The position numbers and the translations under genes are program-made. A stretch of DNA of 33,177 nt from Bacteriovoracaceae bacterium (GTDB taxonomy: Bacteria; Bdellovibrionota; Bacteriovoracia; Bacteriovoracales; Bacteriovoracaceae), in the NCBI GenBank assembly GCA_041586955.1, contig JBFGZE010000026.1:1-33177 (forward strand), in the 5' to 3' direction. Every line of letters begins with the position of its first letter. Positions within the stretch are counted from its first letter, which is position 1. Under the pieces are notes generated by a model, which made no database searches, was not told the DNA's origin, and worked only from the letters and a program-made list of their open reading frames with translations. This document shows, in pieces, positions 1,317 to 29,540 of the stretch.

Positions 1317-2897
1317 ATGGAAAAAGTTCTTTTAATAGATGCTGACTCAAAAGAGGCCAAAATATTTCTTGGGGCCACTGTTAAGCACTACAAGACCTAT
1401 CATGCGAAGCGTTTACGAGACGCGATCAATATCTTAGAATCTGAAAAAATTGATATTATTTTTCTCGATTTATTTCTTGAGGGCGTAAGCTCTGTAGAGT
1501 TATTAGAATACTTTCGCCAAAATTTTGAATATGTGCCGATAATAATCCTTTCAAGCTTTGCTGACGAAACTCTCTTTAGACAAGTGAGTTCGGAAAATAT
1601 TTTATCCTATATCGTGAAAGGTGACCTGAACTATAAATCACTTCATCGCATTATTCGCTATAATTTACAAAAATGGGCGTTTATGTGTGAACGCAAGTCT
1701 AAGCTCAAGCAAACACTAGAGGCAGAGCAAAGAAAAATTTTAGGAAACCTCGTTCTCGGACTTTCTCGCCGCCAGGGAGATCGCCATGGCGCTATACGAT
1801 CGGCGATACGTAAGGTTAAAGGACTGACAGATGATAAGATGGTCAATAATTACATGGACCAGGTGATGGATGATCTATCTAAGTCTGACTCTGATATGGA
1901 TCATCTTCTGTCTTATGCCCAAACGAAAAAGATGGAAATGGAAAATATATCACTTTGCCAATTGGTCAAAGATGTTTTTGGCAAGCTCGATAATCTCACC
2001 CATCAGGACGTCGAGGTTAATTGTCATTTTGAAAATGTTGATGATGTTTTGGTTCATGGGAATGGCCAATTTTTACGTCATATCTTTATGAATCTAATAC
2101 TTAAAATTTTGGAGAAAAAAAAGAGTAGTTTTTTGATTAAAGTTAATATTCAAAAGGCCCTCGATAATGAAATTCTTGCGATGGGGAAAGGTGCGCCATT
2201 GATGGGAGAAATTCCTGATTATGCTAAAATACAATTACAATTTCATTATGAAGATGAGCTCGGAAAGTTATTTAGAAAATACGAAAAAGAAAAAACCTGT
2301 GATGAAGAGCTTTTTCTTGATGAAGAAGGACTGGAGATTTTAGAGACTTTTGGTCTTCTAAGACAAATGGATAGTGACTTTAAAATAGAAAATAAAGAAG
2401 AAGAGGATCATATCCTGCTCAATATTTTTTTATTAATTAAAGAATTCGGCCAAGATGTTGAAAAGGAAAAATTAAGAATTGAAGATTTAAAACTGGTGGA
2501 AGAACCCGCTGGAGAAAAGAAAGTGAAAAGAATATTAGTCGCAGAAGATGACCCCATCTTAAGAGAGATTCTTTGCACAACATTTGAAGAATTTGGTTTT
2601 AGAACTTTTGAGGCGTCAAATGGGCGAAAGGCCTACGATATTTATTTGCAAAACCCTTCTGCGATTGACTTGGCCGTGATCGATGGAGTGATGCCTGAAA
2701 TGGATGGAATTGAATTAACAAAAAAGATTTTTAAAATTAATCCACAACAATTCATTATTTTTAATACTGGTTATAGCGATTATGAGTCACTCAATGTTTA
2801 TCGTGGTTTGCCAAACTTTATTTTTCTTAAGAAACCTTATTCAATTAAAGAGCTCTTAGCTAAAATCCAAGACTACCGCATAGAAAACGAAGCTTAA
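1317..2897 (+). CDS. Hybrid signalling protein: receiver - degenerate histidine-kinase-like core - receiver
   Basis: N-terminal REC (VLLID, IIFLDLFL, IVKG) and C-terminal REC (VAEDD, VIDGVMPEMDG, NTGYS, LKKP). The middle resembles HisKA/HATPase but lacks canonical motifs. Confidence 0.8.
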   Translation: MEKVLLIDADSKEAKIFLGATVKHYKTYHAKRLRDAINILESEKIDIIFLDLFLEGVSSVELLEYFRQNFEYVPIIILSSFADETLFRQVSSENILSYIVKGDLNYKSLHRIIRYNLQKWAFMCERKSKLKQTLEAEQRKILGNLVLGLSRRQGDRHGAIRSAIRKVKGLTDDKMVNNYMDQVMDDLSKSDSDMDHLLSYAQTKKMEMENISLCQLVKDVFGKLDNLTHQDVEVNCHFENVDDVLVHGNGQFLRHIFMNLILKILEKKKSSFLIKVNIQKALDNEILAMGKGAPLMGEIPDYAKIQLQFHYEDELGKLFRKYEKEKTCDEELFLDEEGLEILETFGLLRQMDSDFKIENKEEEDHILLNIFLLIKEFGQDVEKEKLRIEDLKLVEEPAGEKKVKRILVAEDDPILREILCTTFEEFGFRTFEASNGRKAYDIYLQNPSAIDLAVIDGVMPEMDGIELTKKIFKINPQQFIIFNTGYSDYESLNVYRGLPNFIFLKKPYSIKELLAKIQDYRIENEA

Positions 2898-3042
2898 TCG
2901 AATGGTTCATTGTTTACTTCATACTTGGGCCTGTGTTAAGCCGTTTCTTTACAGTGGTGTACATTGGTAGGTCATACTCATTTTATTGCCTCTCCAGAAT
3001 CTTTGGCAAAGAATGAACCGTTACCTTGAAACTGTTGTGGTG

Positions 3043-3816
3043 TTATTCATTAGTGATGTGGCCATAGTTGAGTAGGCCAACGAAAACAACGCCACCGATC
3101 AGGTTTCCGATAATACAGACGAAGAGGATTAAGAGCTGTAGAGGGATGTTGACAACTCCTTGGGATAATAAGTAAGTGAAAATTTCAGCGCTATACATAA
3201 TGCTATGATGGAGGCCACCGACGCCAATAAGAAAAGTCGTGAGGTAGATAATAATAATTTTAAAAACGCTTGAATCGTGAGTGCTACAAACCCATCCTCC
3301 ATGCGCCATTAGCCAGCCTGCGAGAATAGAACTGAGAAAAGATTTTTTGAGATAGGGCCATTCTGCAGGACTTATAATTTGGGCATACCCTGGGACCGCT
3401 TGGATGACATCATTGGCACTAATGATCATGAGGGAACTTAAATAAGTTCCCAAAAGGTTTCCTAGTAAAATAAGGGTCCAAATTCGTACCAATTGAGTGA
3501 AAGTAATTTTTTTATCAATATAAGGAAAAAACGCCATGGCGGTCATTTCTGTGTAAAGGTGTGAATTGCTTAATAAGCACAGAATGAATCCAATTGGATA
3601 AATAATAGAAAGATATAGTCTCCTTTCAAGGGGAGAGGGGACATCAGAATAGATAATGGCAAATAAGGCAATGGCCATACTGGCGACGCCAATAATAAGA
3701 CCAGAATTTAGAGAGGATAAGAATATCGGGTAAGCACCTTTTTTTGAAAGAAGTTTACCTTTTTTAATCACATCACTTAATGTCTTAAATAATCGGGGTG
3801 AGTGGTGTCCATCCAT
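3043..3816 (-). CDS. Formate/nitrite transporter (FNT) family channel, YfdC-like
   Basis: About six hydrophobic segments, YPIGF, HLYTEMT (LFT-E/G-N motif), LLGNLLG, LAGWLMA, GLHHSI, GNLIGG. Start reset to ATG 3816 behind SD GAGGAG at 3823-3828; the longer ORF call overlaps the LysR gene. Confidence 0.88.
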   Translation of the reverse strand: MDGHHSPRLFKTLSDVIKKGKLLSKKGAYPIFLSSLNSGLIIGVASMAIALFAIIYSDVPSPLERRLYLSIIYPIGFILCLLSNSHLYTEMTAMAFFPYIDKKITFTQLVRIWTLILLGNLLGTYLSSLMIISANDVIQAVPGYAQIISPAEWPYLKKSFLSSILAGWLMAHGGWVCSTHDSSVFKIIIIYLTTFLIGVGGLHHSIMYSAEIFTYLLSQGVVNIPLQLLILFVCIIGNLIGGVVFVGLLNYGHITNE

Positions 3817-3829
3817 TAAGGGCTCCTCA

Positions 3830-4696
3830 TTAACTTTTAAATTTATAAGATTCAAGTGGGATAAATTTGGCCTTATCTGGGGTGATCGTGCAATAGACTT
3901 CAAATTGTCCTGCATTGTCTTTGCTAATAGGAGTTAGATAGCCCGCTTCAATATCTTTTTCGATAAAGGCGAGTGGTAGAAAACCAATCCCTTGATTTTT
4001 TTCAACTAATAACTTTGCCATATCAACATCATTAACTTCTAAAGAATGTTCTAACTTAATGAGTTTGTTGCCGATAACGTTATTAAGTGCCTTGGATATG
4101 GCATTTTCATAGTTGAATTGGATAACAGGGGCCTTCTCAAGAGAAAAAGGATAGTTTTCGTCGAGGTGATTATAAAGAATCCCTGCAACTGGAACGATTG
4201 GAGTGCTAAGAATTACTTTTTGAGAGACGTTTCTCTCCGTTTTAAAGGCATAGTCGGTTAAAGCAAGGTCAATCTCACCATGCTTAAATTTTTCTTTGAT
4301 TTCATTATAAGAAAGCCTCTCAATACTGATCGTAAACTGCTTTGAGAGCTTCAGGTTTTTCACAAAGTCTGTCGCCATATCAGTAGAGATCATTGGGGTG
4401 ATGCCAATTTTCAAGAGACGGGTTGTAGGGTGATGACCTTGGTTAAGAAATCTTAACATCTCTTCAGAGATACGAAAAATACGATTAGCATACTCAAGAA
4501 TAATTTTACCATTATCATTGATGAAGAGCCTTTTTCCTTTGCGATCAAAAAGTTTGAGGCCCAAAGTGTCCTCTAGCACCTTTAATTGGGAGCTTAAGGT
4601 TGGTTGAGTAATATGTAATTTTTCTGCGGCCTTCTTTATACTGCCTTCTTTTGCAATAGCGTAGAAGTGAAATAATTGGTTATAGTTAATATTCAT
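3830..4696 (-). CDS. LysR-family transcriptional regulator, NhaR-like
   Basis: NYNQLFHFYAIAKEGSIKKAAEKLHITQPTLSSQLKVLE winged-HTH, LFDRKG, and a C-terminal effector domain. Confidence 0.93.
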   Translation of the reverse strand: MNINYNQLFHFYAIAKEGSIKKAAEKLHITQPTLSSQLKVLEDTLGLKLFDRKGKRLFINDNGKIILEYANRIFRISEEMLRFLNQGHHPTTRLLKIGITPMISTDMATDFVKNLKLSKQFTISIERLSYNEIKEKFKHGEIDLALTDYAFKTERNVSQKVILSTPIVPVAGILYNHLDENYPFSLEKAPVIQFNYENAISKALNNVIGNKLIKLEHSLEVNDVDMAKLLVEKNQGIGFLPLAFIEKDIEAGYLTPISKDNAGQFEVYCTITPDKAKFIPLESYKFKS

Positions 4697-4712
4697 TTTC
4701 GTCCCGCGCTTA

Positions 4713-4725
4713 TAGAAAAGACCTA
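4713..4725. promoter_or_regulatory. Candidate LysR recognition site (T-N11-A)
   Basis: TAG-N7-CTA dyad in the 110-bp divergent intergenic region, close to the LysR start codon. Confidence 0.5.
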
Positions 4726-4806
4726 AGTTGCATATAAGTAAATTAATAATTCAATAGTTGTCAATAACTCATAATACTCTTTTCAGTAAAACAACAAGGA
4801 GTAGAA

Positions 4807-5226
4807 ATGGGCTTAACAAACACTAATTCGATTTTTGGCATCAATCAAAATCTTAGGACCGAAAGTGACTTTTGGATTGATTTGTATAATGGCACAAATG
4901 TAAAAACAAATACATTAAAAAAAATGGTTAACTATATGGTTAACGATAAGTTAGGGAAACATCTTGGGCGAGATGTCAGCCGAATCGAAGTGTGGTTTGC
5001 TGAAGAGGACAAAAATTTTAAGGAACAATTTATTTGCCGTTTTTCAATTTTAAGAAAAAGAGGAGCCGATCTCTTTGTTCACAAAAGAGGGAAAGACGTC
5101 CATCAGGCAATCTCGAAAACAACCAAGGCGATCCAAAATATTTTGAGTAAGGAAAGGGATCAAGCATTTCATGTAAGACAGGCACCAATTACAACTAATG
5201 CACCAATAGATGCAGCAACACTTTAA
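4807..5226 (+). CDS. HPF/RaiA (ribosome-associated, S30AE-fold) family-like protein
   Basis: Pattern fits beta-alpha-beta-beta-beta-alpha: FWIDLY / LKKMVNYMVNDKLGKHL / VSRIEVWF / FICRFSI / DLFVHKRG / DVHQAISKTTKAIQNIL. SD AAGGAG. Confidence 0.65.
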   Translation: MGLTNTNSIFGINQNLRTESDFWIDLYNGTNVKTNTLKKMVNYMVNDKLGKHLGRDVSRIEVWFAEEDKNFKEQFICRFSILRKRGADLFVHKRGKDVHQAISKTTKAIQNILSKERDQAFHVRQAPITTNAPIDAATL

Positions 5227-5261
5227 GAGCGACAATTCTTAATTCAAGGAGGGATTAAACC

Positions 5262-5783
5262 ATGAGTATGTTAAATATTGTTTCTTGCGATATGTTTAAA
5301 TATCAGCAGAAATCAGGTTACCTACAAGGGTTTATCTACGGAAAAAATGTGTATTCTTCACCAGTTAAAATTAATAAGGATGATTTAAGGGAAATCCTTT
5401 CAAACGGAAAGAGAGTGTTTCAAGCAAAGCTTAATAAAATGAGAACGATTATGGTAAGTATTGAAAATATTTATTTTAACCCACAAAATGAGAAGCCTGA
5501 ATATATTCTGCTTCATCAATTTGATGAAGGCGATGAAACAATTATCTCAGTGCCGGTCATCATTCAAGAGAATGGTCTTAAGGACGATAGATGGTTTTTC
5601 AAGCAATTTGTTAATGAGGTTTACTTGAGAACAAACTCCTCCTCTGTTCCTCGTAACTTGTATTATGATATTTCTCACTTTCACCCTGGAGAGGCCTTAT
5701 TTGTGAAGGACCTTAAAATACCAGAGAATTGCAAACCCATTCAAAGCGGTGATGTCGAGATTGGTGTTTGTAAGATGTATTAA
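5262..5783 (+). CDS. Divergent ribosomal protein bL25/CTC (TL5-like) paralog
   Basis: GFIYG, IYFNP, ISVPV, VPRNLYYDISHFHPGEALFVKDLKIPE match the two-domain CTC pattern (PAVIYG, QRHP, VPV, IPEFIEVDVS..GD.IHV.DL.LP). SD AAGGAGG. Confidence 0.78.
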   Translation: MSMLNIVSCDMFKYQQKSGYLQGFIYGKNVYSSPVKINKDDLREILSNGKRVFQAKLNKMRTIMVSIENIYFNPQNEKPEYILLHQFDEGDETIISVPVIIQENGLKDDRWFFKQFVNEVYLRTNSSSVPRNLYYDISHFHPGEALFVKDLKIPENCKPIQSGDVEIGVCKMY

Positions 5784-5817
5784 AGAAGTCATTAATAAAA
5801 CTTTTGAGGAGTGAAGT

Positions 5818-6576
5818 ATGAAAAATTCCATTACACGATTACCCTTCGAGTTATTGGTAATTATCTTTGTCGTTCTATTAATGAAAATGAGTTATGGAGC
5901 GACATTACATGATGATGGTTTTTCTATTGATAGAGTTTTTATTTCTGATGGATTTAGTACAGAAGATAAAGTTGAAGTCGTTGTGAAAGGGTATTTCGTG
6001 AACCATTGTTACAATGGTTTGGAAACGCAATTTAACTTTGATGATGAGATTATTAATATAAAGATGAAGGCCTTGGAGAGTCAAAAAATGGCCGAAGTGC
6101 AGAATTGTGCTGAAGCTATTTCCCCCTTTGTTGAAACGATTAATTTAGGCCAATTAGATCCTGGAAATTATGCGGTCCAAATTAATGGTAAAGATATTGA
6201 ACAAGGGATCCAGGTAATAGAGCTTCCTGAAAGGAGTTCCTCAGTGAAAGATCTTGCCGCAACAGTGCAATTGATGTCATTGGGGGATGTTAAGTGGATG
6301 GAGGGTCTAGGTGTTGGCATTGAGGTTTTAGGTTATAAGGTGGCCGAGTGTTATCGCATAGATGACTCGTTATTTTATAATGGACTTGATGCTATCACGA
6401 TTAATATGAAAATCGTTGGACAAAACGATTTTTGCCCGAGAAAGATGACGCCATTTAAAAAGGTGGTTCATTTTAACCCTCTCCTTCCTTTACTAGGAGA
6501 GGTTCTTATTACTCTGCGGCTAGATGGGCATATAATAGATAATTATATAGTCAACCTTTCTAGTCTGGAGTTATGA
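5818..6576 (+). CDS. Secreted hypothetical protein with two internally similar Cys-pair domains
   Basis: Signal peptide, then repeated V.V.GY...CY ... C.....PF motifs (VVVKGYFVNHCY..CAEAISPF; IEVLGYKVAECY..CPRKMTPF). SD GAGGAG. Confidence 0.75.
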   Translation: MKNSITRLPFELLVIIFVVLLMKMSYGATLHDDGFSIDRVFISDGFSTEDKVEVVVKGYFVNHCYNGLETQFNFDDEIINIKMKALESQKMAEVQNCAEAISPFVETINLGQLDPGNYAVQINGKDIEQGIQVIELPERSSSVKDLAATVQLMSLGDVKWMEGLGVGIEVLGYKVAECYRIDDSLFYNGLDAITINMKIVGQNDFCPRKMTPFKKVVHFNPLLPLLGEVLITLRLDGHIIDNYIVNLSSLEL

Positions 6577-6665
6577 GGTTGAGATTTATCAATGAAGTCG
6601 CAAGATACTGAAATTTATACACCTTGAACTTGAGGTACACTTGAGAGTAAATTTAAAAGGAAGAC

Positions 6666-6693
6666 TCAAATTTATCTTTTGAAATGCCGAAAA
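6666..6693 (+). promoter_or_regulatory. Sigma28 (FliA)-type promoter candidate for the HD-GYP gene
   Basis: TCAAA-N15-GCCGAAAA versus consensus TAAA-N15-GCCGATAA; 8 nt upstream of ATG 6702. Confidence 0.55.
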
Positions 6694-6701
6694 GGATAGG
6701 G

Positions 6702-7892
6702 ATGAAAAAGATAAGTCAGAGTTGTTATTTTTCCGTATCGAGCGACCTAGTTGTATTAAATGAGGCGCTTCCTTATGACCTTTACATTAATAGTTCCGGT
6801 AATTCTAAGAGGGAACGATTTGTTAAGGTTTTTCCAAGTGGTGATATTCTTGAACTAGAGGATGTTGCGACATTTAAAAAAAAATACCATCAATTATATA
6901 TCGCGGAGGCCCAGCGGTCGGCCTATTTAAAATCTCTCGTTAAAAATGAAAAAGCAGATCCTGTTGAAAAAACTCAGGTGATTAAAGATTCTGCAATTCA
7001 CTATCTCAATAAAGTTTTTGATAAAGATAAGGAGTTCACAACTGAAGTTTTAGGTGAGGCCATTGCGGGTTGCCATGACTCAGTGGAATGTATGCTCGAT
7101 GTGATCAATGATTATAACGTTGATGAAGTTCAAAACCTCATTGCCAGTTTAAGTTTTCATGATTTTTATACATTTGATCATTCGATTAATGTTTCCATGT
7201 ATAGTATGTCCATTTTTAAAGAAGTGAGCCCGAATGCTGATCGTAATGAAATAATTATGGCAGGATTAGGAGGACTACTCCATGACCTTGGAAAAATTAA
7301 AATTCCCACTCATATTATTAATAACTCCGGAAAATTATCAGATGAAGAATTTGGTGTTATTAAAAAGCACCCCGGGTTTGGCGGTGAATTATTAGATATG
7401 AATAAAATGGTTTTTGATGGTGTTAACTTTGCGACAGTAAGACGTGTGATTATGGAACACCATGAAAACTTCAATGGAACGGGCTATCCAAAAGGTCTTC
7501 AGGGTGAAGAGATTCATATTTTTGCCCGTGTGACAGCGATCGCGGACTTTTTTGATGCCATTACCACTAAAAGATCTTACCATGAGGCCCTTTCAATGGA
7601 AGACTCTATTGCTGTTATGGAAAAAACAGTAGGGAAGAAAATTGATCCTGAGATTTTTACCATCTTTAAAGATAATGTGGCACAAATTGCGGCCAAGAAA
7701 ATTAATAAAATGTTGCCGGAAGACTTTGACCCATGTCAGCCTCACGATAAATTACCCTTTAAACCAATCCCTATCAATTTTGATAAAAAAGATTCAGATA
7801 ATAAGCTGGCCGCTGGTGACAAAGAGAAGGAAGACTTTGGTAAGGTCAAGTCAGATGGCATTTTCGGTGATAATAAAAAAGAAGCGTCCTAA
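6702..7892 (+). CDS. HD-GYP domain cyclic-dinucleotide phosphodiesterase
   Basis: YTFDHS, LLHDLGK, KKHP, HHENFNGTGYP, AIADFFDAIT, KRSY. Start placed at the second Met; the ORF track starts at 6684. Confidence 0.92.
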   Translation: MKKISQSCYFSVSSDLVVLNEALPYDLYINSSGNSKRERFVKVFPSGDILELEDVATFKKKYHQLYIAEAQRSAYLKSLVKNEKADPVEKTQVIKDSAIHYLNKVFDKDKEFTTEVLGEAIAGCHDSVECMLDVINDYNVDEVQNLIASLSFHDFYTFDHSINVSMYSMSIFKEVSPNADRNEIIMAGLGGLLHDLGKIKIPTHIINNSGKLSDEEFGVIKKHPGFGGELLDMNKMVFDGVNFATVRRVIMEHHENFNGTGYPKGLQGEEIHIFARVTAIADFFDAITTKRSYHEALSMEDSIAVMEKTVGKKIDPEIFTIFKDNVAQIAAKKINKMLPEDFDPCQPHDKLPFKPIPINFDKKDSDNKLAAGDKEKEDFGKVKSDGIFGDNKKEAS

Positions 7893-9034
7893 ATATCCAA
7901 GGCCCGAATTAGGGTTTCGACTTGTTCCTTTGTATTAAAGATATGAAAAGAAAGGCGAATATTTCCCTGGCGGACAGATACGTCGACATTACAATGTTTG
8001 AGTTCTGTTTCTAGTTTTAGAGGGTCAATATTTTTGGCCGATAAGCATAAGATATTTCCCATATATTCTTTTGGGGTAATGAGGTTGTATTTTGATTGAG
8101 GATAATTTTCTAAGAAAAAGTCGCGTATGTCTTGGTTATGCTTTTTAATTTCATATAGGCCGACTTTTTTAAGAAAATCAAGGCCTGCTTCAACACAAGA
8201 GAGGGTGAGTAAGTTAGGCGTCTGTCCACGATCATATTTACGCGCGCCAGGAAGTGTTTCAGTAGTGTAATTTAAAAGGTTATAAACAACTTTTGAATTG
8301 GGACTGGCAATCCAATTGCCCGTTTTCCGCGCAATCAACTTTTGTGCCTTATCTGAAAAGTATCCAAAGGCATGGCCATAAGCACCTAGCATCCATTTAT
8401 AGGAAGAGATCGCGAGCACATCGACGTATTCTAGTTCCTCTGCTGTGATGGGTAAGCCGCCCAGCGCCTGAGTGCCATCAACCACAAAAAGAATATTCCG
8501 GGACCTAAGGTATTTTCCAATGGAGAGGATATCAACTTTTTTTCCTGTATCAAAGGTGACCCATGAGACATTGAACACCTTGGTACTGGCAGGGAGTACC
8601 TTTTCTAACCAGTCAACAGTAGGGATGATTTCATCTCCCAGGTCTAATAAATTGAAATCAAAAGGAGAGTATTCTGATGCCACCATCCAAGGAATAACAT
8701 TAGAGGGGTAGTCCCCATTGACCGCACATACAATATCACCCTCTTTAAAATCAAAACCATTGGCCACAATACTGACGAGGTCACTAGTTGAAGTCGAGTG
8801 AGTAATATTATCTTCGGAGCAACCAATTAATTTGGCCATTAGGCGGCGGGAACGTTCTGGGACCCCTGTCCAGGTATTATAATTATAAAATGAGGGGTCT
8901 AGCTCCTTTTGAGCGGCACGGAATATTTTTTTCTTTGCAGAGTAAGGACTTGGTCCAAAATAGGCGGTATTAAAGAAAATAGAATCGAGATGTTGATATT
9001 CTTTATTGATATACTCACGAATTTCGGAATTCAT
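7889..9034 (-). CDS. Aminotransferase class V PLP-dependent enzyme
   Basis: FNTAYFGP, YPSN, VVDGTQ, SSYKW (PLP Lys) and IRLSFHIFN. No obvious C-terminal persulfide-Cys motif, so not called a cysteine desulfurase. Confidence 0.9.
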   Translation of the reverse strand: MNSEIREYINKEYQHLDSIFFNTAYFGPSPYSAKKKIFRAAQKELDPSFYNYNTWTGVPERSRRLMAKLIGCSEDNITHSTSTSDLVSIVANGFDFKEGDIVCAVNGDYPSNVIPWMVASEYSPFDFNLLDLGDEIIPTVDWLEKVLPASTKVFNVSWVTFDTGKKVDILSIGKYLRSRNILFVVDGTQALGGLPITAEELEYVDVLAISSYKWMLGAYGHAFGYFSDKAQKLIARKTGNWIASPNSKVVYNLLNYTTETLPGARKYDRGQTPNLLTLSCVEAGLDFLKKVGLYEIKKHNQDIRDFFLENYPQSKYNLITPKEYMGNILCLSAKNIDPLKLETELKHCNVDVSVRQGNIRLSFHIFNTKEQVETLIRALDI

Positions 9035-9133: not shown

Positions 9134-9604
9134 TTATTGAGCAGGTGCCGCCTTGGGGGCTTCTTTTTTGGCCGCGGGGGCAGCTTCGCTCTTTGGAGTC
9201 TCTGCTTTGGTGGCCGGAGTTACTGGGGTGTTTTCTTTCCCTTCAGCTTTGGCCGGAGTGGTGGCCTTTGTCTTGTCTGCTTCTTCTGCTGCCTTCTTCT
9301 CCGCTGCCTCTGTGGCGGCATCCATGTTTAACGGACGAGAAATAGGTGCTTCTGTATCAAGAAGAGAGGTACCTGTTTTGCTACTTTGTAGTTTTGCTAA
9401 AAGAATTGAGTTTCCCATAAAGATAATGGAGAGGATGATTGTCATCTTACTAAGGATATTTCCCTGTTGGGCACCAGTAAAAACTGAATCAGCACCACCA
9501 CTGGACATGAGCCCTGCTTCGGCCCCTTTCCCAAATTGTAAAAGAACAACAATAATTAAAAGTATAGAAACAACGGCCTGTAAAACCATGAGTGTGTTAA
9601 TCAT
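9134..9604 (-). CDS. secG: Preprotein translocase subunit SecG with a long low-complexity tail
   Basis: VVLLQFGKGA, two TM segments, LSKMT; position directly after tpiA. Confidence 0.93.
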   Translation of the reverse strand: MINTLMVLQAVVSILLIIVVLLQFGKGAEAGLMSSGGADSVFTGAQQGNILSKMTIILSIIFMGNSILLAKLQSSKTGTSLLDTEAPISRPLNMDAATEAAEKKAAEEADKTKATTPAKAEGKENTPVTPATKAETPKSEAAPAAKKEAPKAAPAQ

Positions 9605-9639
9605 TTGTGGTTAATCCTTGTTTAATAAACATCTAACTT

Positions 9640-9668
9640 AACCTATAAAAATCGGTAAGTTTTGGCAA
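9640..9668 (-). promoter_or_regulatory. Sigma70-type promoter candidate for secG
   Basis: TTGCCA-N17-TAGGTT on the minus strand. Confidence 0.5.
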
Positions 9669-9703
9669 ATAATGCCATGCAGGGCACATTTGCACAAGCT
9701 TTT

Positions 9704-10474
9704 TTAATAAAACTTTTGAGCACTTAGACACAGTTTGGCAAAGCTGTCGCCTTTTAAACTGGCCCCCCCAACTAAAGCGCCATCAATTTCAGGGCAACTT
9801 AATAATTCTTCGCAGTTTTCAGGTTTAACTGAACCGCCGTAAAGAATAATAGTCTTTTTTCCCTGCCAGCCTAAGTCTTCTGTTAAAATTTCTCGGATAT
9901 CGGCGTGCGCCTGATTGGCCTCGCTTGGAGTCGCTGTTTTTCCAGTACCTATTGCCCAGACTGGCTCGTAGGCAATAATAATTTGATCTTGTAATTGCGG
10001 GGCAACCTTTTGGAGTTCTGCGGTGATTTGCTCTTTTAAAATATCTCGGGTTTTTCCTGATTCCCGTTCCTCTAAAGTTTCACCCACGCAATAAATGACT
10101 GGAAGATTATGATCTAGGGCCAATTGAACTTTACGGGCGATGAGATCATGACCTTCGTTAAAAATAGCGCGTCTTTCAGAATGGGCGATGAGAGTGAAGT
10201 CGGCGTTAAAGTCTTTTAGGGATTGAGGTGATATTTCACCGGTAAAAGCACCTTTGTCTTGATCGTGACAATTTTGACCACCGATAATAAAGGAGAGTCC
10301 TTTGGACTTATTTTGCTCTTGTAGAGTTCCTAGGTGCAGGGCCTGTGGCGCGATACCATAAACGCATTGAAGTTTTGTATGGGAGGTGGCCTTTTTAAAC
10401 TCCGTAAAGAATAGCTCAATATCTTTAAGAGTTTGATTCATTTTCCAATTGCCAATAATGTGAATATTTCTCAC
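9704..10474 (-). CDS. tpiA: Triosephosphate isomerase
   Basis: GNWKMN, GAFTGEIS, HSERR, AYEPVWAIGTG, YGGSV, LVGGAS. Start reset to GTG 10474 behind AAGGA, just after the pgk stop. Confidence 0.97.
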   Translation of the reverse strand: MRNIHIIGNWKMNQTLKDIELFFTEFKKATSHTKLQCVYGIAPQALHLGTLQEQNKSKGLSFIIGGQNCHDQDKGAFTGEISPQSLKDFNADFTLIAHSERRAIFNEGHDLIARKVQLALDHNLPVIYCVGETLEERESGKTRDILKEQITAELQKVAPQLQDQIIIAYEPVWAIGTGKTATPSEANQAHADIREILTEDLGWQGKKTIILYGGSVKPENCEELLSCPEIDGALVGGASLKGDSFAKLCLSAQKFY

Positions 10475-10484
10475 CACTAAGTCC

Positions 10485-11681
10485 TTAGTTAATACCAAAT
10501 TTGAGGGCCTGGATACCGGGTAAGGTACCTTGTTCAATATATTCCAATGAAGCACCACCACCAGTAGAAACATGACTCATGGCCTGGGCCTTACCTGATT
10601 GATTGACAGCATTTACTGAATCGCCGCCACCAACAAGGGTAAAGCAATCTTTCAATTCTGCTAATAGGTGAGCGATGGCAAAAGTTCCCTTGGAAAAATC
10701 TTCTTTTTCAAAAAATCCCATCGGTCCATTCCATAAAACAGTTTTGGCATCCTTGAGGATATAAGCAAACTCACTAATTGTTTGTGGCCCAATATCAAGG
10801 GCCATCATGCCATCATCAATATGGGCATCTTTGGTTGTCATTATATTGGGGTTATTGGGATCCATCGCGCAGAGATGATCAATAGGAAGAATGATTTTTT
10901 TTGAGGTTCTTTGCTTGAGAATGCTACGGGCCAAGGCGACATCTTCATCGCGGCAAAGAGAAGCACCGACGTTGATCCCTTTGGCCTTAAGAAATGGGTA
11001 GGCCATGGCCCCGCCAATAATGAGGTGGTTCACTTGTGGTAATAAACGCTCGATTATTTTTATTTTATCGGAAACCTTAGCGCCACCTACGATGGCGACA
11101 AAAGGTGTTTTGGGATTATTAACAACTTGATCAAGGGCATTCATTTCCTTTTTAAGAAGAAATCCTGCACAAGCATTTTTCTTAAAGAAGGAATTGATTT
11201 CATAAGTTGAGGCATGTTTGCGATGGGCCGTACCAAAAGCGTCATTCACATAAATATCACCATACTGGCTTAGGGTTTTAGCGAACTCATGATCGTTGGC
11301 CGTTTCCTCTTTATGAAAGCGAAGGTTTTGCAATAAAATGACTCGAGGGTTGGGGAGGTTGAGAAGGGTTTTAATTCCATGATCGGTACATGATTCTGTC
11401 AAAAGAACTTCTGTTTTGAGTTTCTCTGCCAGATAAGAAGCAATAGGTTCTAAGCTATATTCTTCTTTGAACTGTCCTTGTGGTCGACCTAAATGGGACA
11501 TCAAAACTAATTTTTTTGCCCCCTGGTCAAGAATATATTGGATGGTCTCCAGGGCAAGATCTATTCTGGTGGTATCTATAATTTCATAGGGACTAGTTTT
11601 AGTGAGTGGGACATTAAAGTCAAAACGAGCGATGACGTTTTTTCCGTCTAACTCTACTTCATTCACATATTGAATGGCCAT
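10485..11681 (-). CDS. pgk: Phosphoglycerate kinase
   Basis: RFDFNVP, SHLGRP, NDAFGTAHR, GGAKVSDK, WNGPMG, GGGDS, STGGGA. Confidence 0.99.
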   Translation of the reverse strand: MAIQYVNEVELDGKNVIARFDFNVPLTKTSPYEIIDTTRIDLALETIQYILDQGAKKLVLMSHLGRPQGQFKEEYSLEPIASYLAEKLKTEVLLTESCTDHGIKTLLNLPNPRVILLQNLRFHKEETANDHEFAKTLSQYGDIYVNDAFGTAHRKHASTYEINSFFKKNACAGFLLKKEMNALDQVVNNPKTPFVAIVGGAKVSDKIKIIERLLPQVNHLIIGGAMAYPFLKAKGINVGASLCRDEDVALARSILKQRTSKKIILPIDHLCAMDPNNPNIMTTKDAHIDDGMMALDIGPQTISEFAYILKDAKTVLWNGPMGFFEKEDFSKGTFAIAHLLAELKDCFTLVGGGDSVNAVNQSGKAQAMSHVSTGGGASLEYIEQGTLPGIQALKFGIN

Positions 11682-11734
11682 TGGGGGAACTCCTTTATTA
11701 TGTCCTCAGATGGTATTTAAAAACGAATTGAGCT

Positions 11735-11763
11735 AAAAAGAGGCCTCCATAAATATGAAGGCC
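11735..11763 (-). terminator. Terminator-like hairpin between gap and pgk
   Basis: Minus strand GGCCTTCAT-4 nt-ATGGAGGCC followed by TCTTTTT. Confidence 0.65.
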
Positions 11764-11771
11764 ATTAGCTC

Positions 11772-12788
11772 TTATAATTTATTACCGATTAATTGTGCCA
11801 GGTCGATGACACGATTTGAGAAACCAGCTTCATTGTCATACCAAGTCACAACTTTGATCATATTATCGATTTTATTGGTGAGGGCCAAATCGACGCAAGA
11901 GGATTCTCGCATTCCCATGAAGTCCTGGCTGACGAGAGGAGTTGCTTCACAGGCCAAAATGCCTTTGAGAGAACCGTTGGCAGCTTCGATCAGGGCCTGG
12001 TTCACTTCTTCAATAGAGACATTATTTTTTAAGGTGACGTTTAAATCAACTAATGAAACATTGGGAGTGGGAACGCGTATCGCGAATCCATCTAATTTTC
12101 CTTTTAATTCTGGGATGACAAGACCAACAGCTTTCGCTGCACCAGTCGTGGTGGGGATCATACTGACAGCGGCGGCGCGCGCTCTTCTTAGGTCACGATG
12201 GGAGCCGTCGAGCAAATGCTGGTCAGAAGTATAGGAATGAATCGTTGTCATAAAACCTTTTTCAATGCCAAATTTATCATTCAAAACTTTGGCCACAGGA
12301 GCTAAGCAATTGGTGGTACAGCTAGCGTTTGAAACGATATGTTGTTCATCACTATTATAAGTATGATCGTTAATACCCACGACAAATGTTCCGTCTAGGT
12401 CTTTGCCCGGAGCGCACATAATGACTTTCTTAACACTGCCTCTTTTATGCTTGCTAAGAGATGGGCCATCTTTAAAAATGCCGGTGGCATCAATGACGAT
12501 CTCCGCCTGTTGGTCACTCCAAGGAATGTCAGAAGGGTCTTTTACATTATGAAATTGTATTTTCTGACCATTAATAATGAGTTGATTTGTTTCTTTATTG
12601 TATTCGACTTCTTGGTCAAAGCGTCCATGGACAGAATCATACTTAAGAAGGTGAATGTATTGGTTGGGATCGCCAGGATTATTAACTGCGACAACTTCTA
12701 AATTGATATTTTGACGATTAAAAATTTCGCGAAGAACAGTTCGGCCGATGCGGCCCATTCCATTGATAGCAACCTTGACTTTGGACAT
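11772..12788 (-). CDS. gap: Type I glyceraldehyde-3-phosphate dehydrogenase
   Basis: INGMGRIGR, YDSVHG, NASCTTNCLAP, RVPTPNVS, WYDNE. Start reset to ATG 12788 behind SD GGAG. Confidence 0.99.
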   Translation of the reverse strand: MSKVKVAINGMGRIGRTVLREIFNRQNINLEVVAVNNPGDPNQYIHLLKYDSVHGRFDQEVEYNKETNQLIINGQKIQFHNVKDPSDIPWSDQQAEIVIDATGIFKDGPSLSKHKRGSVKKVIMCAPGKDLDGTFVVGINDHTYNSDEQHIVSNASCTTNCLAPVAKVLNDKFGIEKGFMTTIHSYTSDQHLLDGSHRDLRRARAAAVSMIPTTTGAAKAVGLVIPELKGKLDGFAIRVPTPNVSLVDLNVTLKNNVSIEEVNQALIEAANGSLKGILACEATPLVSQDFMGMRESSCVDLALTNKIDNMIKVVTWYDNEAGFSNRVIDLAQLIGNKL

Positions 12789-13020
12789 TAATAAACTCCG
12801 GTAATTGGTGGTTATGATAATAAGGGGTTTATGCCATATATACCATGACTTGGGTAGTCCCTGGGCCTTTAATACCCGCTGAAAAAAGAGTGTTTTAGTC
12901 AGTAGAGGGTTTTTTGCCTTGTGTAACAAATAAAGGCTTTTTGTTACCCTGAAGAAGATGACAAAAAATAGAATATGGCACTATCCGTCTAAACAACAAT
13001 ACCTGACTAAGAAAGGGTCT

Positions 13021-27741: not shown

Positions 27742-27826
27742 GGCGTGGCCTTACTTCGGCATACATCGTGCGCGTCATTTGGATTAATTAAAATAATATT
27801 CTGAAAGGAATTAGGGAAGTTTAAAA

Positions 27827-27903
<77 letters not shown>

Positions 27904-27914
27904 ATCGAAAGAAT

Positions 27915-27943
27915 GTTATAAATGAAATGATAAGTTTTGGCAA
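27915..27943 (-). promoter_or_regulatory. Sigma70 promoter of tRNA-Pro
   Basis: TTGCCA-N17-TATAAC ending 11 nt before the mature 5' end. Confidence 0.72.
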
Positions 27944-28001
27944 TCAGATTTAAGTTGCTGATTTTAAAAGGGAAAAAAGGTGATTAAGGCCTTGATTTTC
28001 T

Positions 28002-28028
28002 TTAAGCAGGGGGCCCAATAGCCGATAA
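28002..28028 (+). promoter_or_regulatory. Sigma28 (FliA)-type promoter
   Basis: TTAAG-N14-GCCGATAA, 6 nt before ATG 28035. Confidence 0.72.
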
Positions 28029-28034
28029 GAAGTT

Positions 28035-29540
28035 ATGATAAATCAAAAATGGTTCCTACTACTTAGCTTATTCTTTTTTCTGTCTTGTTCCATGGCACCG
28101 GTAAAGCGGGAAATTGCGACTGACGATGAGATCCCTTGTTTTGAATTATTGGCCGAAATCATGGTCAAAAAAATGCCGACAGAGATGACTTTAGAGGCGA
28201 AAACTATCTTCTATGAAGTGGGTCGCTCTTATTGGCGACAATCCCAACGCAAGTCCTTCTGGCGCCTCTGGGAATGGGGAGATGACTTCAAGGCCTTTTT
28301 AGTTCGGAATTATAAACGCTTTAATGCCAATAAAGTGCCGGTTTATTATATTGATGATGAGGGAGAAACATTTTTAAAGATCAGCAAGGTCGTCGATTAT
28401 TTTAAGAGGAGCGTTAATGACTCTAAGCCGGATGATAAACTTGAGGCAGATGCCATATTAGGAGTTAAAAATTGGATATCAAAGAGTAGTCAATATCCAC
28501 AGGATATGTCTTTTCTCTTACAAGAGTTTCATTCAATTGATATGGCAATTGATCAATTACAGGGCAGTGTGAGAAAGAGAATTTCACAATACCCTCATAT
28601 CGAAGAGATCATCATCATTAAGGACGGAAAAAAGGTTGTCGAGATTAAAGAATTTTTTAATCGTGAGTCCTTATTACAATATAAAGATGAATTACGTGTC
28701 GCTAAGAAATCTCTTATGGGCCGAGGTCTATTCATCAATGGAAAAATTGACAAGCGAGAAATGCTTCAGGCCAAAAACTTTAGACGCTTGATTTTTCTTT
28801 TGGACAAATTGCGTGATATCCAATTGACCAATGACAAAAATGGTCGAAATAATAGCGAAGAGCTTTTGTCCATCGTGGAATCAATTCAGAGTGTTCTTTT
28901 AGATAAAACGTTAGCACCATCTAAGCGTTATCGCTCTCTTCTTGTGAATGCTGAATTAAGCAGTGAGTTTAAGGATCTTTTTAGAACGATTGAAGATCAG
29001 AAAGTGATTCGAGAGGGGAAGAAATTTTACCAATCAATGACACCGGAGCAATTAAAGTTATTGGGAATTAAAGATATGCACGGGCGATCTGGGGAATTGG
29101 TAAAATTATTTAAAAAGAATAAATGGACTGCTTTAGTTTTGGGGGTCTCCTCAGCAGGAGGGGTGACAGGGGTCACTATTTCCATTAAAGACTTCTTGAT
29201 GTCCGACGCTCAAAGACGATTGCAATGTGTCGAGAAGCCGGATGATAAGGCCTTTATGGCCTGCTTTAAAGATTATTTACGTAATAAATACAAAGTTAAA
29301 AATCCATTTTATTATACTTTTTATGGGAATAGCGGCCTGCTTGAGGCCCTTAAAGGTGATGAGAGGATGGCCAATGAATTTAAAGAAGAGTATCGCATCG
29401 TTATCGAAATGAGGGCGCATTTTAAAAAGATTGAGGTCGACTCGATCCGTTTTGAACAAGAGTTATTACAAAAGATCGAAGATTTGGTGAAAGAAGATAT
29501 TAAAAAAGAAGATATTCGCAATAAAAAATTTGAAAATTAA
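28035..29540 (+). CDS. Hypothetical helical lipoprotein with an internal Gly-rich hydrophobic segment
   Basis: Lipobox-like FLSC, a highly charged body, and WTALVLGVSSAGGVTGVTISI near residue 365. Confidence 0.78.
   Translation: MINQKWFLLLSLFFFLSCSMAPVKREIATDDEIPCFELLAEIMVKKMPTEMTLEAKTIFYEVGRSYWRQSQRKSFWRLWEWGDDFKAFLVRNYKRFNANKVPVYYIDDEGETFLKISKVVDYFKRSVNDSKPDDKLEADAILGVKNWISKSSQYPQDMSFLLQEFHSIDMAIDQLQGSVRKRISQYPHIEEIIIIKDGKKVVEIKEFFNRESLLQYKDELRVAKKSLMGRGLFINGKIDKREMLQAKNFRRLIFLLDKLRDIQLTNDKNGRNNSEELLSIVESIQSVLLDKTLAPSKRYRSLLVNAELSSEFKDLFRTIEDQKVIREGKKFYQSMTPEQLKLLGIKDMHGRSGELVKLFKKNKWTALVLGVSSAGGVTGVTISIKDFLMSDAQRRLQCVEKPDDKAFMACFKDYLRNKYKVKNPFYYTFYGNSGLLEALKGDERMANEFKEEYRIVIEMRAHFKKIEVDSIRFEQELLQKIEDLVKEDIKKEDIRNKKFEN

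Follow-up and report, generated by a model that had tools for sequence, protein, structure and literature searches.

The window analysed in this study is a stretch of 33,177 nucleotides (contig JBFGZE010000026.1 of GenBank assembly GCA_041586955.1) from a member of the Bacteriovoracaceae, and the element of interest is a cluster of five genes at positions 3043 to 6576. In this cluster, the genes for an NhaR-like LysR-type regulator and for a channel of the formate/nitrite transporter (FNT) family are divergent from three genes encoding a small basic protein with a predicted HPF/RaiA fold (hereafter the HPF-like protein), a homologue of the ribosomal protein bL25/Ctc (the L25-like protein), and an exported protein. 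An earlier reading of the same DNA, made from the sequence alone, had proposed a LysR-controlled ribosome stress module. Our analyses indicate that the region is very probably a diverged and rearranged copy of a LysR-linked module conserved in this bacterial family, and we assign a probability of roughly 55% to the stress-module explanation as a whole, which blends the identity of the components with the mechanism by which they would act. The features of the cluster are the following:

3043..3816, minus strand: FNT-family anion channel (PF01226), probably 257 aa from the ATG at 3816
3043-3915, minus strand: FNT open reading frame as listed, a long form overlapping the end of lysR
3830..4696, minus strand: NhaR-like LysR-type regulator (HTH_1 and LysR_substrate domains)
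4697..4806, no strand: divergent intergenic region of 110 bp, putative control region, from the sequence
4807..5226, plus strand: protein with predicted HPF/RaiA fold, 139 aa, short single-domain form from the divergent and basic "type 1" subfamily of S30AE
5262..5783, plus strand: predicted two-domain bL25/Ctc homologue, 173 aa, highly diverged
5818..6576, plus strand: exported tandem beta-sandwich protein, 252 aa, YB1M_beta family (PF27154)

The positions of the five genes and the 110-bp divergent gap (4697-4806) given by the sequence-only reading agree with the list of open reading frames. All five frames are intact, and the four effector genes carry strong, correctly spaced Shine-Dalgarno (SD) sequences. 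Those of the plus-strand genes, AAGGAG for the HPF-like gene, AAGGAGG for the L25-like gene, and GAGGAG for the gene of the secreted protein, are as strong as had been described, and the gaps of 35 and 34 nt that separate these three genes fit a single transcript. The FNT gene probably starts at the ATG at 3816, giving 257 aa, because a GAGGAG motif lies 6 nt upstream of this codon, which is situated 13 nt past the lysR stop, at the distance reported earlier.

Protein families and folds encoded by the cluster

The HPF/RaiA fold of the HPF-like protein, already called from the sequence, was established at the level of a structural model. The AF2 model, computed on an alignment designated A3, reached a predicted local distance difference test (pLDDT) score of 86 and consisted of one folded domain with the order beta-alpha-beta-beta-beta-alpha and a low-confidence tail past residue 125. 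When this model was compared to the PDB with Foldseek, ranks 1 to 34 were all occupied by ribosome-bound HPF, RaiA, YfiA, PSRP1, or RafH chains or by solved HPF/YfiA homologues, with a probability of 1.00, target-normalised template modelling (TM) scores of 0.36-0.85, and root-mean-square deviations (rmsd) mostly of 2-3 Å. Alignment A3 was composed of 47 of the 119 proteins that a HMMER search with a four-sequence profile retrieved at E ≤ 1e-3 (16 at E ≤ 1e-10; mostly 95-150 aa) from 1.84 billion representative proteins. Searched against PDB sequences (hmmsearch), the A3 profile placed RaiA, PSRP1, and HPF chains on top, with E values of 1.8e-4 to 2.6e-3, and hibernation factors accounted for 13 of the 16 matches listed. 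The Pfam family PF02482 (Ribosomal_S30AE) matched 17 of the 47 A3 members at E ≤ 0.01, and the HPF-like proteins form a divergent S30AE subfamily, the greater part of which escapes Pfam.

Short HPF/RaiA proteins (YfiA, pY) share this fold, the rmsd to their ribosome-bound chains being about 2-3 Å, and are likewise basic single domains of approximately 100 residues. The C-terminal dimerisation domain of the long, 100S-forming HPF is absent from the 139-aa window protein. The isoelectric point was 9.4-10 in all six type-1 members tested, and that of the window protein is 9.7, an indirect hint at a possible binding to the 30S subunit. In contrast to HPF/RaiA, the subfamily has its own signature (W..EVWL, C-G, R-P), with most members missed by Pfam, and is always tied to a Ctc gene and a LysR gene rather than to rpoN. 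Conservation in the window protein, at 8 of 14 conserved columns, lies inside the family range, in which the lowest of the 23 other members keeps 8 of 18, and the protein looks functional.

As the sequence-only reading had anticipated, the canonical copies of both ribosomal genes are located elsewhere in the genome: hpf at C25:26531-26905 (63.7 bits), directly downstream of rpoN, and bL25 at C16:26418-27059 (115 bits). Further S30AE-like genes were identified on contigs C42 and C27. The C27 locus (27747-28602) consists of two tandem small basic genes; the 104-aa product is matched by the HPF-like profile at 60 bits and by PF02482 at 25.6 bits, and the 144-aa product encoded upstream is S30AE-like by eye, which brings the HPF-fold genes of this genome to at least four or five.

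Judging from its domain matches, the L25-like protein is a two-domain Ctc homologue that shares the L25p N-domain and the TL5_C domain with Ctc/TL5 of Bacillus subtilis and Thermus thermophilus. TL5_C was matched at 31.1 bits, above its cut-off of 27, and 14 NCBIfam Ctc models matched the protein across residues 9-167. The CTC/bL25-like call was thereby borne out for both domains; of the searches suggested earlier, that with TL5_C succeeded, and that with Ribosomal_L25p stayed just under its cut-off (20.9 versus 23.6 bits). The score against TIGR00731 was 47.6 bits, under the equivalog cut-off of 73.1. Among the 52 TIGR00731 matches listed for the family, 49 exceeded this cut-off, and the window copy (46.8 bits in the six-frame search) was one of the three below it. 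Against PDB bL25 chains, the L25-like protein reached 24 bits and the other bL25 of the genome 85 bits. Unlike Ctc/TL5, the window copy has no acidic tail (its length is 173 aa versus about 200-230) and coexists with a normal bL25. A predicted complex of the L25-like and HPF-like proteins scored 0.01 versus a mark of 0.32. A word-indexed search of 5.8 billion proteins returned no close homologue of the HPF-like, L25-like, or secreted protein.

The regulator carries an HTH_1 domain (65.8 bits) and a LysR_substrate domain (52.1 bits). Its best NCBIfam match is NhaR (NF008284), at 96.6 bits, in agreement with the earlier NhaR-like call; this score does not reach the equivalog cut-off of 219, nor does that of a typical LysR orthologue from a relative, for which NhaR gives 140.6 bits versus 93 for the next family. 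NhaR is the Na+-responsive LysR activator of Escherichia coli; the divergent arrangement is alike in the two systems, and the target genes differ. A local hidden Markov model (HMM) of the regulator, in which the window sequence was itself included, scored the window protein at 397 bits versus 193 for the next LysR in the genome, and the window LysR is, by these sequence scores, the sole orthologue of the module regulator in this genome. Because it is the only orthologue, the cluster is the genome's own copy of the module rather than an extra one. In the control region, the TAG-N7-CTA dyad noticed earlier does exist at 4712-4724, with arms of 3 bp that make it trivial; it is enclosed by a candidate 6-bp inverted repeat, CTTATA-N18-TATAAG, at 4709-4738.

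The FNT call was confirmed by PF01226 (122.6 bits; cut-off 34.6) and by the nearest solved chain, 3tds ("formate/nitrite transporter"; E 1.5e-12), with which the central His and Thr of the pore align; this chain we take to be the Clostridioides difficile hydrosulfide channel HSC. The window FNT shares PF01226 and these two residues with FocA, NirC, and 3tds, but belongs to a distinct subfamily of proteins of approximately 300 aa with an N-terminal extension, found in stress clusters of the family; it falls far under the cut-offs of both the FocA and NirC NCBIfam equivalogs and is 37-46% identical to 11 FNTs of relatives. In the window protein this extension is truncated, and the N-terminal motif PVIIKR..RHPDD, common to 10 full-length relatives, is missing. 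In three relatives (L078:6930-7373, L077:333-851, and L079:1495-1941), the FNT gene is followed by a gene for a protein of approximately 147 aa without a Pfam match, 71-82% identical across the three. In L078, the cluster also extends over an HPF-like gene of the second type and a gene for an SPFH protein, and a LysR of a different lineage is divergent from the FNT gene.

In its model, the secreted protein has a hydrophobic helix near the N terminus (residues 10-23), after which come two beta-sandwich domains; it contains four invariant Cys. Its two halves align at E 1e-4, which, together with the helix, upheld its description as a secreted two-repeat protein. It bears the precomputed label PF27154.1, and its nearest Atlas clusters, 96-100% of whose members are PF27154, are "YB1M beta-sandwich" proteins of Bdellovibrionota; no match was found in NCBIfam or in a copy of Pfam without PF27154. 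Of 61 relatives, 37 carry homologues of the protein, frequently with several copies per genome. A Foldseek comparison with solved structures gave nothing at E ≤ 1e-3, and the wide structure search (VIA) gave a best Z of 7.1, the matches listed being beta-sandwich domains of unrelated proteins. These structural matches are generic and pointed to no specific function. The secreted protein was not found at the other module loci and is a lineage-specific addition outside the conserved module, so that its inclusion as a component of the cluster was not sustained.

YB1M_beta genes were also observed near S30AE-like genes at other places. At C42:11034-12777 of the window's own genome, a YB1M_beta paralogue is divergent from an S30AE-like gene whose product has 92 aa and after which comes a gene with a CBS domain. 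A relative (contig G023:C110; locus L080:5932-8350) shows a similar arrangement, in which a YB1M_beta homologue diverges from three genes on the other strand that encode a 291-aa protein, an S30AE-like protein of 87 aa, and a DksA-like protein. Together with the window, there are three such adjacencies.

Recurrence of the LysR-linked cluster in the family

The distribution of the cluster was surveyed in one genome per species, including metagenome-assembled genomes (MAGs) of varying completeness. Type-1 HPF-like genes were detected at more than 100 bits in 6 of 61 family genomes. A search of 401 genomes of the phylum at E ≤ 1e-12 gave seven carriers, and every one belongs to the window's family (6 of 100, plus the window's genome), with none among the 300 genomes of other families. 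The union of carriers comprises eight genomes (G000, G016, G023, G031, G072, G082, G185, and G391), and in all eight an L25/Ctc gene is situated downstream of the HPF-like gene, on the same strand and within 1.2 kb, sometimes with a Dps or pentapeptide-repeat gene in between. Likewise, in loci retrieved for different purposes, the local A3 HMM located type-1 HPF-like genes immediately 5' of L25/Ctc genes. A divergent LysR orthologue was present at all seven type-1 loci with upstream DNA; the contig of G016 begins 114 nt before the HPF-like gene.

A scan with the LysR alignment, again with one genome per species, kept 80 loci, of which the 20 most similar (L087-L106) were annotated with local HMMs, the labels being checked by Pfam; the other 60, mostly from Pseudoalteromonas and Methylophilaceae at ≤33% identity, lay outside this annotation. 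Among the 13 orthologous LysR loci with upstream DNA, L25 was found at 10, Dps at six, and HPF-like and BON genes at five each, with an FNT gene adjacent in two and 5 kb away in one more. By comparison, L25, HPF-like, Dps, BON, and FNT genes were absent from all six more distant LysR loci. The LysR-anchored and genome surveys share some loci, and their counts are not additive. The arrangements encountered were HPF-like-Dps-Ctc-BON, HPF-like-Ctc-BON, Dps-Ctc, Ctc-BON, Ctc-FNT, and Dps-FNT-BON, and the locus of one relative additionally carried CsbD and a second Dps 4 kb downstream. According to their record titles, the LysR loci come from Bacteriovoracaceae, Bacteriovorax, Halobacteriovoraceae, and Bacteriovoracia or Oligoflexia MAGs. 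A full arrangement of LysR divergent from HPF-like-Ctc-BON was also observed in a record titled as a Flavobacteriaceae MAG (L099), with genes 58% identical to those of the predatory family; this contig may be mis-binned.

These loci define, as far as gene order and sequence similarity indicate, a conserved module in which an NhaR-like LysR reads away from a predicted operon composed of Ctc and, variably, HPF-like, Dps, FNT, and BON genes. Regarding the recurrence of the window cluster, the core of a LysR divergent from HPF-like and Ctc genes, often with FNT, is thus repeated across genera of the family, and the exact set of five genes is not. No paper describing such a module was listed by full-text literature searches, with subscription journals not covered. 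The kinds of component are known; what is new here is the sequence-divergent HPF subfamily and the operon arrangement for Ctc.

Conceivably, five unrelated genes without common regulation or function could have come to lie side by side, as the exact set was found only here and as a scan of positions 2800-8000 revealed no excess of promoter-like sites (13 versus 17.2 in shuffled sequence) or terminator-like sites (3 versus 3.4). Against this stand the order of LysR, HPF-like, and L25 genes, which is kept in seven other genomes, the recurrence of FNT in LysR-linked clusters, and the intergenic gaps of the plus-strand genes, whose lengths are compatible with one transcript. Because of this synteny, we regard chance adjacency as excluded for practical purposes, its probability being very small.

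The L25 genes of the family were also classified by phylogeny. In a tree of 43 L25/Ctc proteins, the 15 L25s defined by their context formed one clade (Shimodaira-Hasegawa-like approximate likelihood ratio test, SH-aLRT, 89). For 13 of these 15, a link to LysR was seen or, in G016, a link to the HPF-like gene only, and the other two were linked only to Hsp20 or FNT. The remaining 27 L25s, including the C16 copy of the window's genome, were placed on the other side of the branch. The window L25-like protein fell on the module side with a support of 86; from this placement, its membership in the module clade is neither shown nor rejected. No bL25/Ctc match to TIGR00731 came up in the sequence searched for 20 of 61 genomes of the family, which falls short of proving absence; the completeness of eight of these 20 is 99-100%, and other genomes of the family bear two to four copies. 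For five genomes (G002, G016, G022, G023, and G082), TIGR00731 matched nothing but the module-clade gene, and for two of the five a divergent LysR was shown. The module Ctc of the relatives keeps all conserved residues. At 31 L25 loci of the family, the 62 flanking genes included none with a Prs or Pth Pfam label; since no family L25 locus showed the prs-rplY-pth context, its absence from the window, which had been used as an argument for an accessory L25, is uninformative.

Divergence of the window copy, proposed mechanism, and alternatives

The window copy differs from the conserved arrangement in that its FNT gene is situated behind lysR and not in the operon. Its LysR, FNT, and L25-like proteins are each the most diverged of their sets: the LysR is 31% identical to its orthologues, which are 47-54% identical to one another, and the FNT scores 123 bits versus 145-174 for its subfamily.

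A number of observations weigh against the stress-module explanation and concern the folds, the residues, and the locus. With regard to the HPF-like protein, the proposed match to Ribosomal_S30AE was obtained by fold in Foldseek but not by Pfam score, since PF02482 gave 21.8 bits (E 3.2e-4) versus a cut-off of 23.7. Moreover, 30 of the 47 subfamily members had no PF02482 match at E 0.01, none of four type-1 relatives matched it at E 1e-3, hhalign of A3 with the genome's own canonical HPF gave a probability of 4%, and A3 includes members that match PF02482, possibly biasing the AF2 model to that fold. As for the L25-like protein, when it was aligned with 33 family L25/Ctc proteins, it kept 12 of 27 columns conserved at ≥75%, and every other member kept at least 20 of 31. 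C9 and Q16 replace Arg residues found in 32 and 33 of the 33 relatives, respectively, Q22 replaces Pro (32 of 33), Y81 replaces His (33 of 33), and RW replaces the GG of 30-31 of the 33. The end branch of the protein is 3.4-4.2 changes per site versus a median of 0.84-0.96. With respect to the locus, it has neither Dps nor BON, and a search of the window's whole genome, whose completeness is 88%, turned up no BON domain. A putative operator box, approximately ACATATA-N3-TTA-N2-TATAYATAA, is located upstream of lysR in all 12 aligned orthologous intergenic regions (alignment A6), and the window contains no match to it at ≤3 mismatches. Finally, one Dps-L25 pair (L053) without a LysR nearby lies outside the module clade.

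The near-invariant Arg and His positions are presumably among the conserved contacts of TL5/L25 with 5S rRNA. Because the near-invariant Arg, Arg, and His, which Ctc/TL5 proteins have, are gone, ordinary 5S rRNA binding by the L25-like protein is doubtful and has, to judge from these substitutions, probably been lost. The other bL25 of the genome has an ordinary end branch (0.59-0.77), and therefore the acceleration is confined to this cluster.

This local divergence raises the question of whether the window cluster is a decaying remnant, in which the normal bL25 and hpf genes elsewhere in the genome would have relaxed selection, with the genes drifting to loss and the L25-like product, if no other, no longer functional. 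The low identity of the LysR and low score of the FNT, the long branch and lost near-invariant residues of the L25-like protein, the operator that was not found, the loss of Dps and BON, and the local nature of the acceleration could all be explained in this way. Nevertheless, the five reading frames are intact and the effector genes retain strong, well-spaced SD sequences, the HPF-like protein is confidently folded in its model and conserved within the family range, and the L25-like protein still matches both Ctc domains, and we consider decay unlikely. A further alternative is that the HPF-like and L25-like proteins of the window have left the ribosome for a different RNA or protein partner, which might even be one another, and serve a new function under LysR control that is linked to the FNT or the secreted protein. 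The L25-like protein has lost near-invariant residues and kept the signature of the two-domain fold, and its amino-acid composition deviates from that of the rest of the family; additionally, the type-1 HPF-like gene never occurs without a Ctc gene (8 of 8 genomes), and S30AE-like genes stand beside YB1M_beta at two further loci (C42 of the own genome and G023:C110). Positive evidence for any alternative target is nil, however, and the Ctc of the relatives keeps its conserved residues and is the sole bL25 in five genomes, which fits a ribosomal role, making such a repurposing less likely still than decay.

In the stress-module explanation, which we prefer to both, the NhaR-like LysR would switch the operon on in response to salt, osmolarity, or a cue of the starvation type. 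The basic HPF-like protein would then sit in the decoding region of the 30S subunit, silencing and protecting 30S or 70S particles as HPF and RaiA do, and Ctc would load onto the 5S rRNA of the 50S subunit as a conditional, stress-time ribosomal protein, as in B. subtilis. Dps could protect the DNA, BON the envelope, and FNT the anion or pH balance. Taken separately, this ribosome-directed mechanism has somewhat less than an even chance in our estimation. Of the overall sequence-only reading, the folds, the families, and the core linkage stood, and the exact combination and the membership of the secreted protein did not; its proposed remodelling of both ribosomal subunits stays a hypothesis.

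Since relatives add Dps, BON, and once CsbD, the module looks like an operon for stress in general, with a scope beyond the ribosome. In B. subtilis, ctc, hpf/yvyD, dps, and csbD belong to the sigma-B general stress regulon, and the same protein families thus apparently are used together under stress in both systems; unlike in that regulon, the genes of the module are clustered in one operon, a LysR takes the place of the sigma factor, and BON and FNT are added. Ctc is described as stress-induced in B. subtilis (PMC4408793), an inducibility echoed by the relatives' Ctc in what would be a stress operon.

A broader proposal can be made, tentatively and with some doubt on our part, for the predatory family as a whole. 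Here, bL25 would be a conditional, regulator-controlled rather than a constitutive ribosomal protein, paired with a dedicated, hitherto unrecognised HPF subfamily for two-subunit ribosome protection, with an NhaR-like sensor of salt or osmolarity as the switch and with Dps and BON expressed alongside; in the window, the partner Ctc would have been freed from 5S rRNA binding once a second bL25 lineage was present and would be evolving freely.

The module gives an HPF/RaiA subfamily that is mostly missed by family models a conserved partner (Ctc/bL25) and a regulator (the NhaR-like LysR), and poses the question of whether a 50S protein and a 30S silencing factor can be deployed as one stress unit. 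Furthermore, members of one family seem able to do without bL25 or to regulate it in different ways, a point of relevance to the old question of the function of bL25/Ctc, and the tie of an uncharacterised FNT subfamily to stress clusters hints at a role of these channels in anion or pH balance in dormancy.

Neighbouring genes

Downstream of the cluster, a gene encoding an HD_5/HD domain protein (HD-GYP-like, 402 aa) is located at 6684-7892 on the plus strand and starts 107 nt past the gene of the secreted protein. The terminator scan of 2800-8000 placed no site after the latter gene, and the two may be co-transcribed, with no terminator-like site between them. On the other side, a gene at 1317-2897 on the plus strand, convergent with the FNT gene, has a 526-aa product in which two stretches are receiver domains (Response_reg, 102.5 bits). 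Both the HD_5 gene and the double-receiver gene were considered as parts of the system and set aside, as neither recurs at the orthologous loci. Further out, the flanks at 690-1160 and 9134-12929 encode, by eye, an SSB-like protein and homologues of SecG, TpiA, Pgk, and Gap, and these housekeeping-like neighbours suggest a location in the core chromosome and not on a mobile element.

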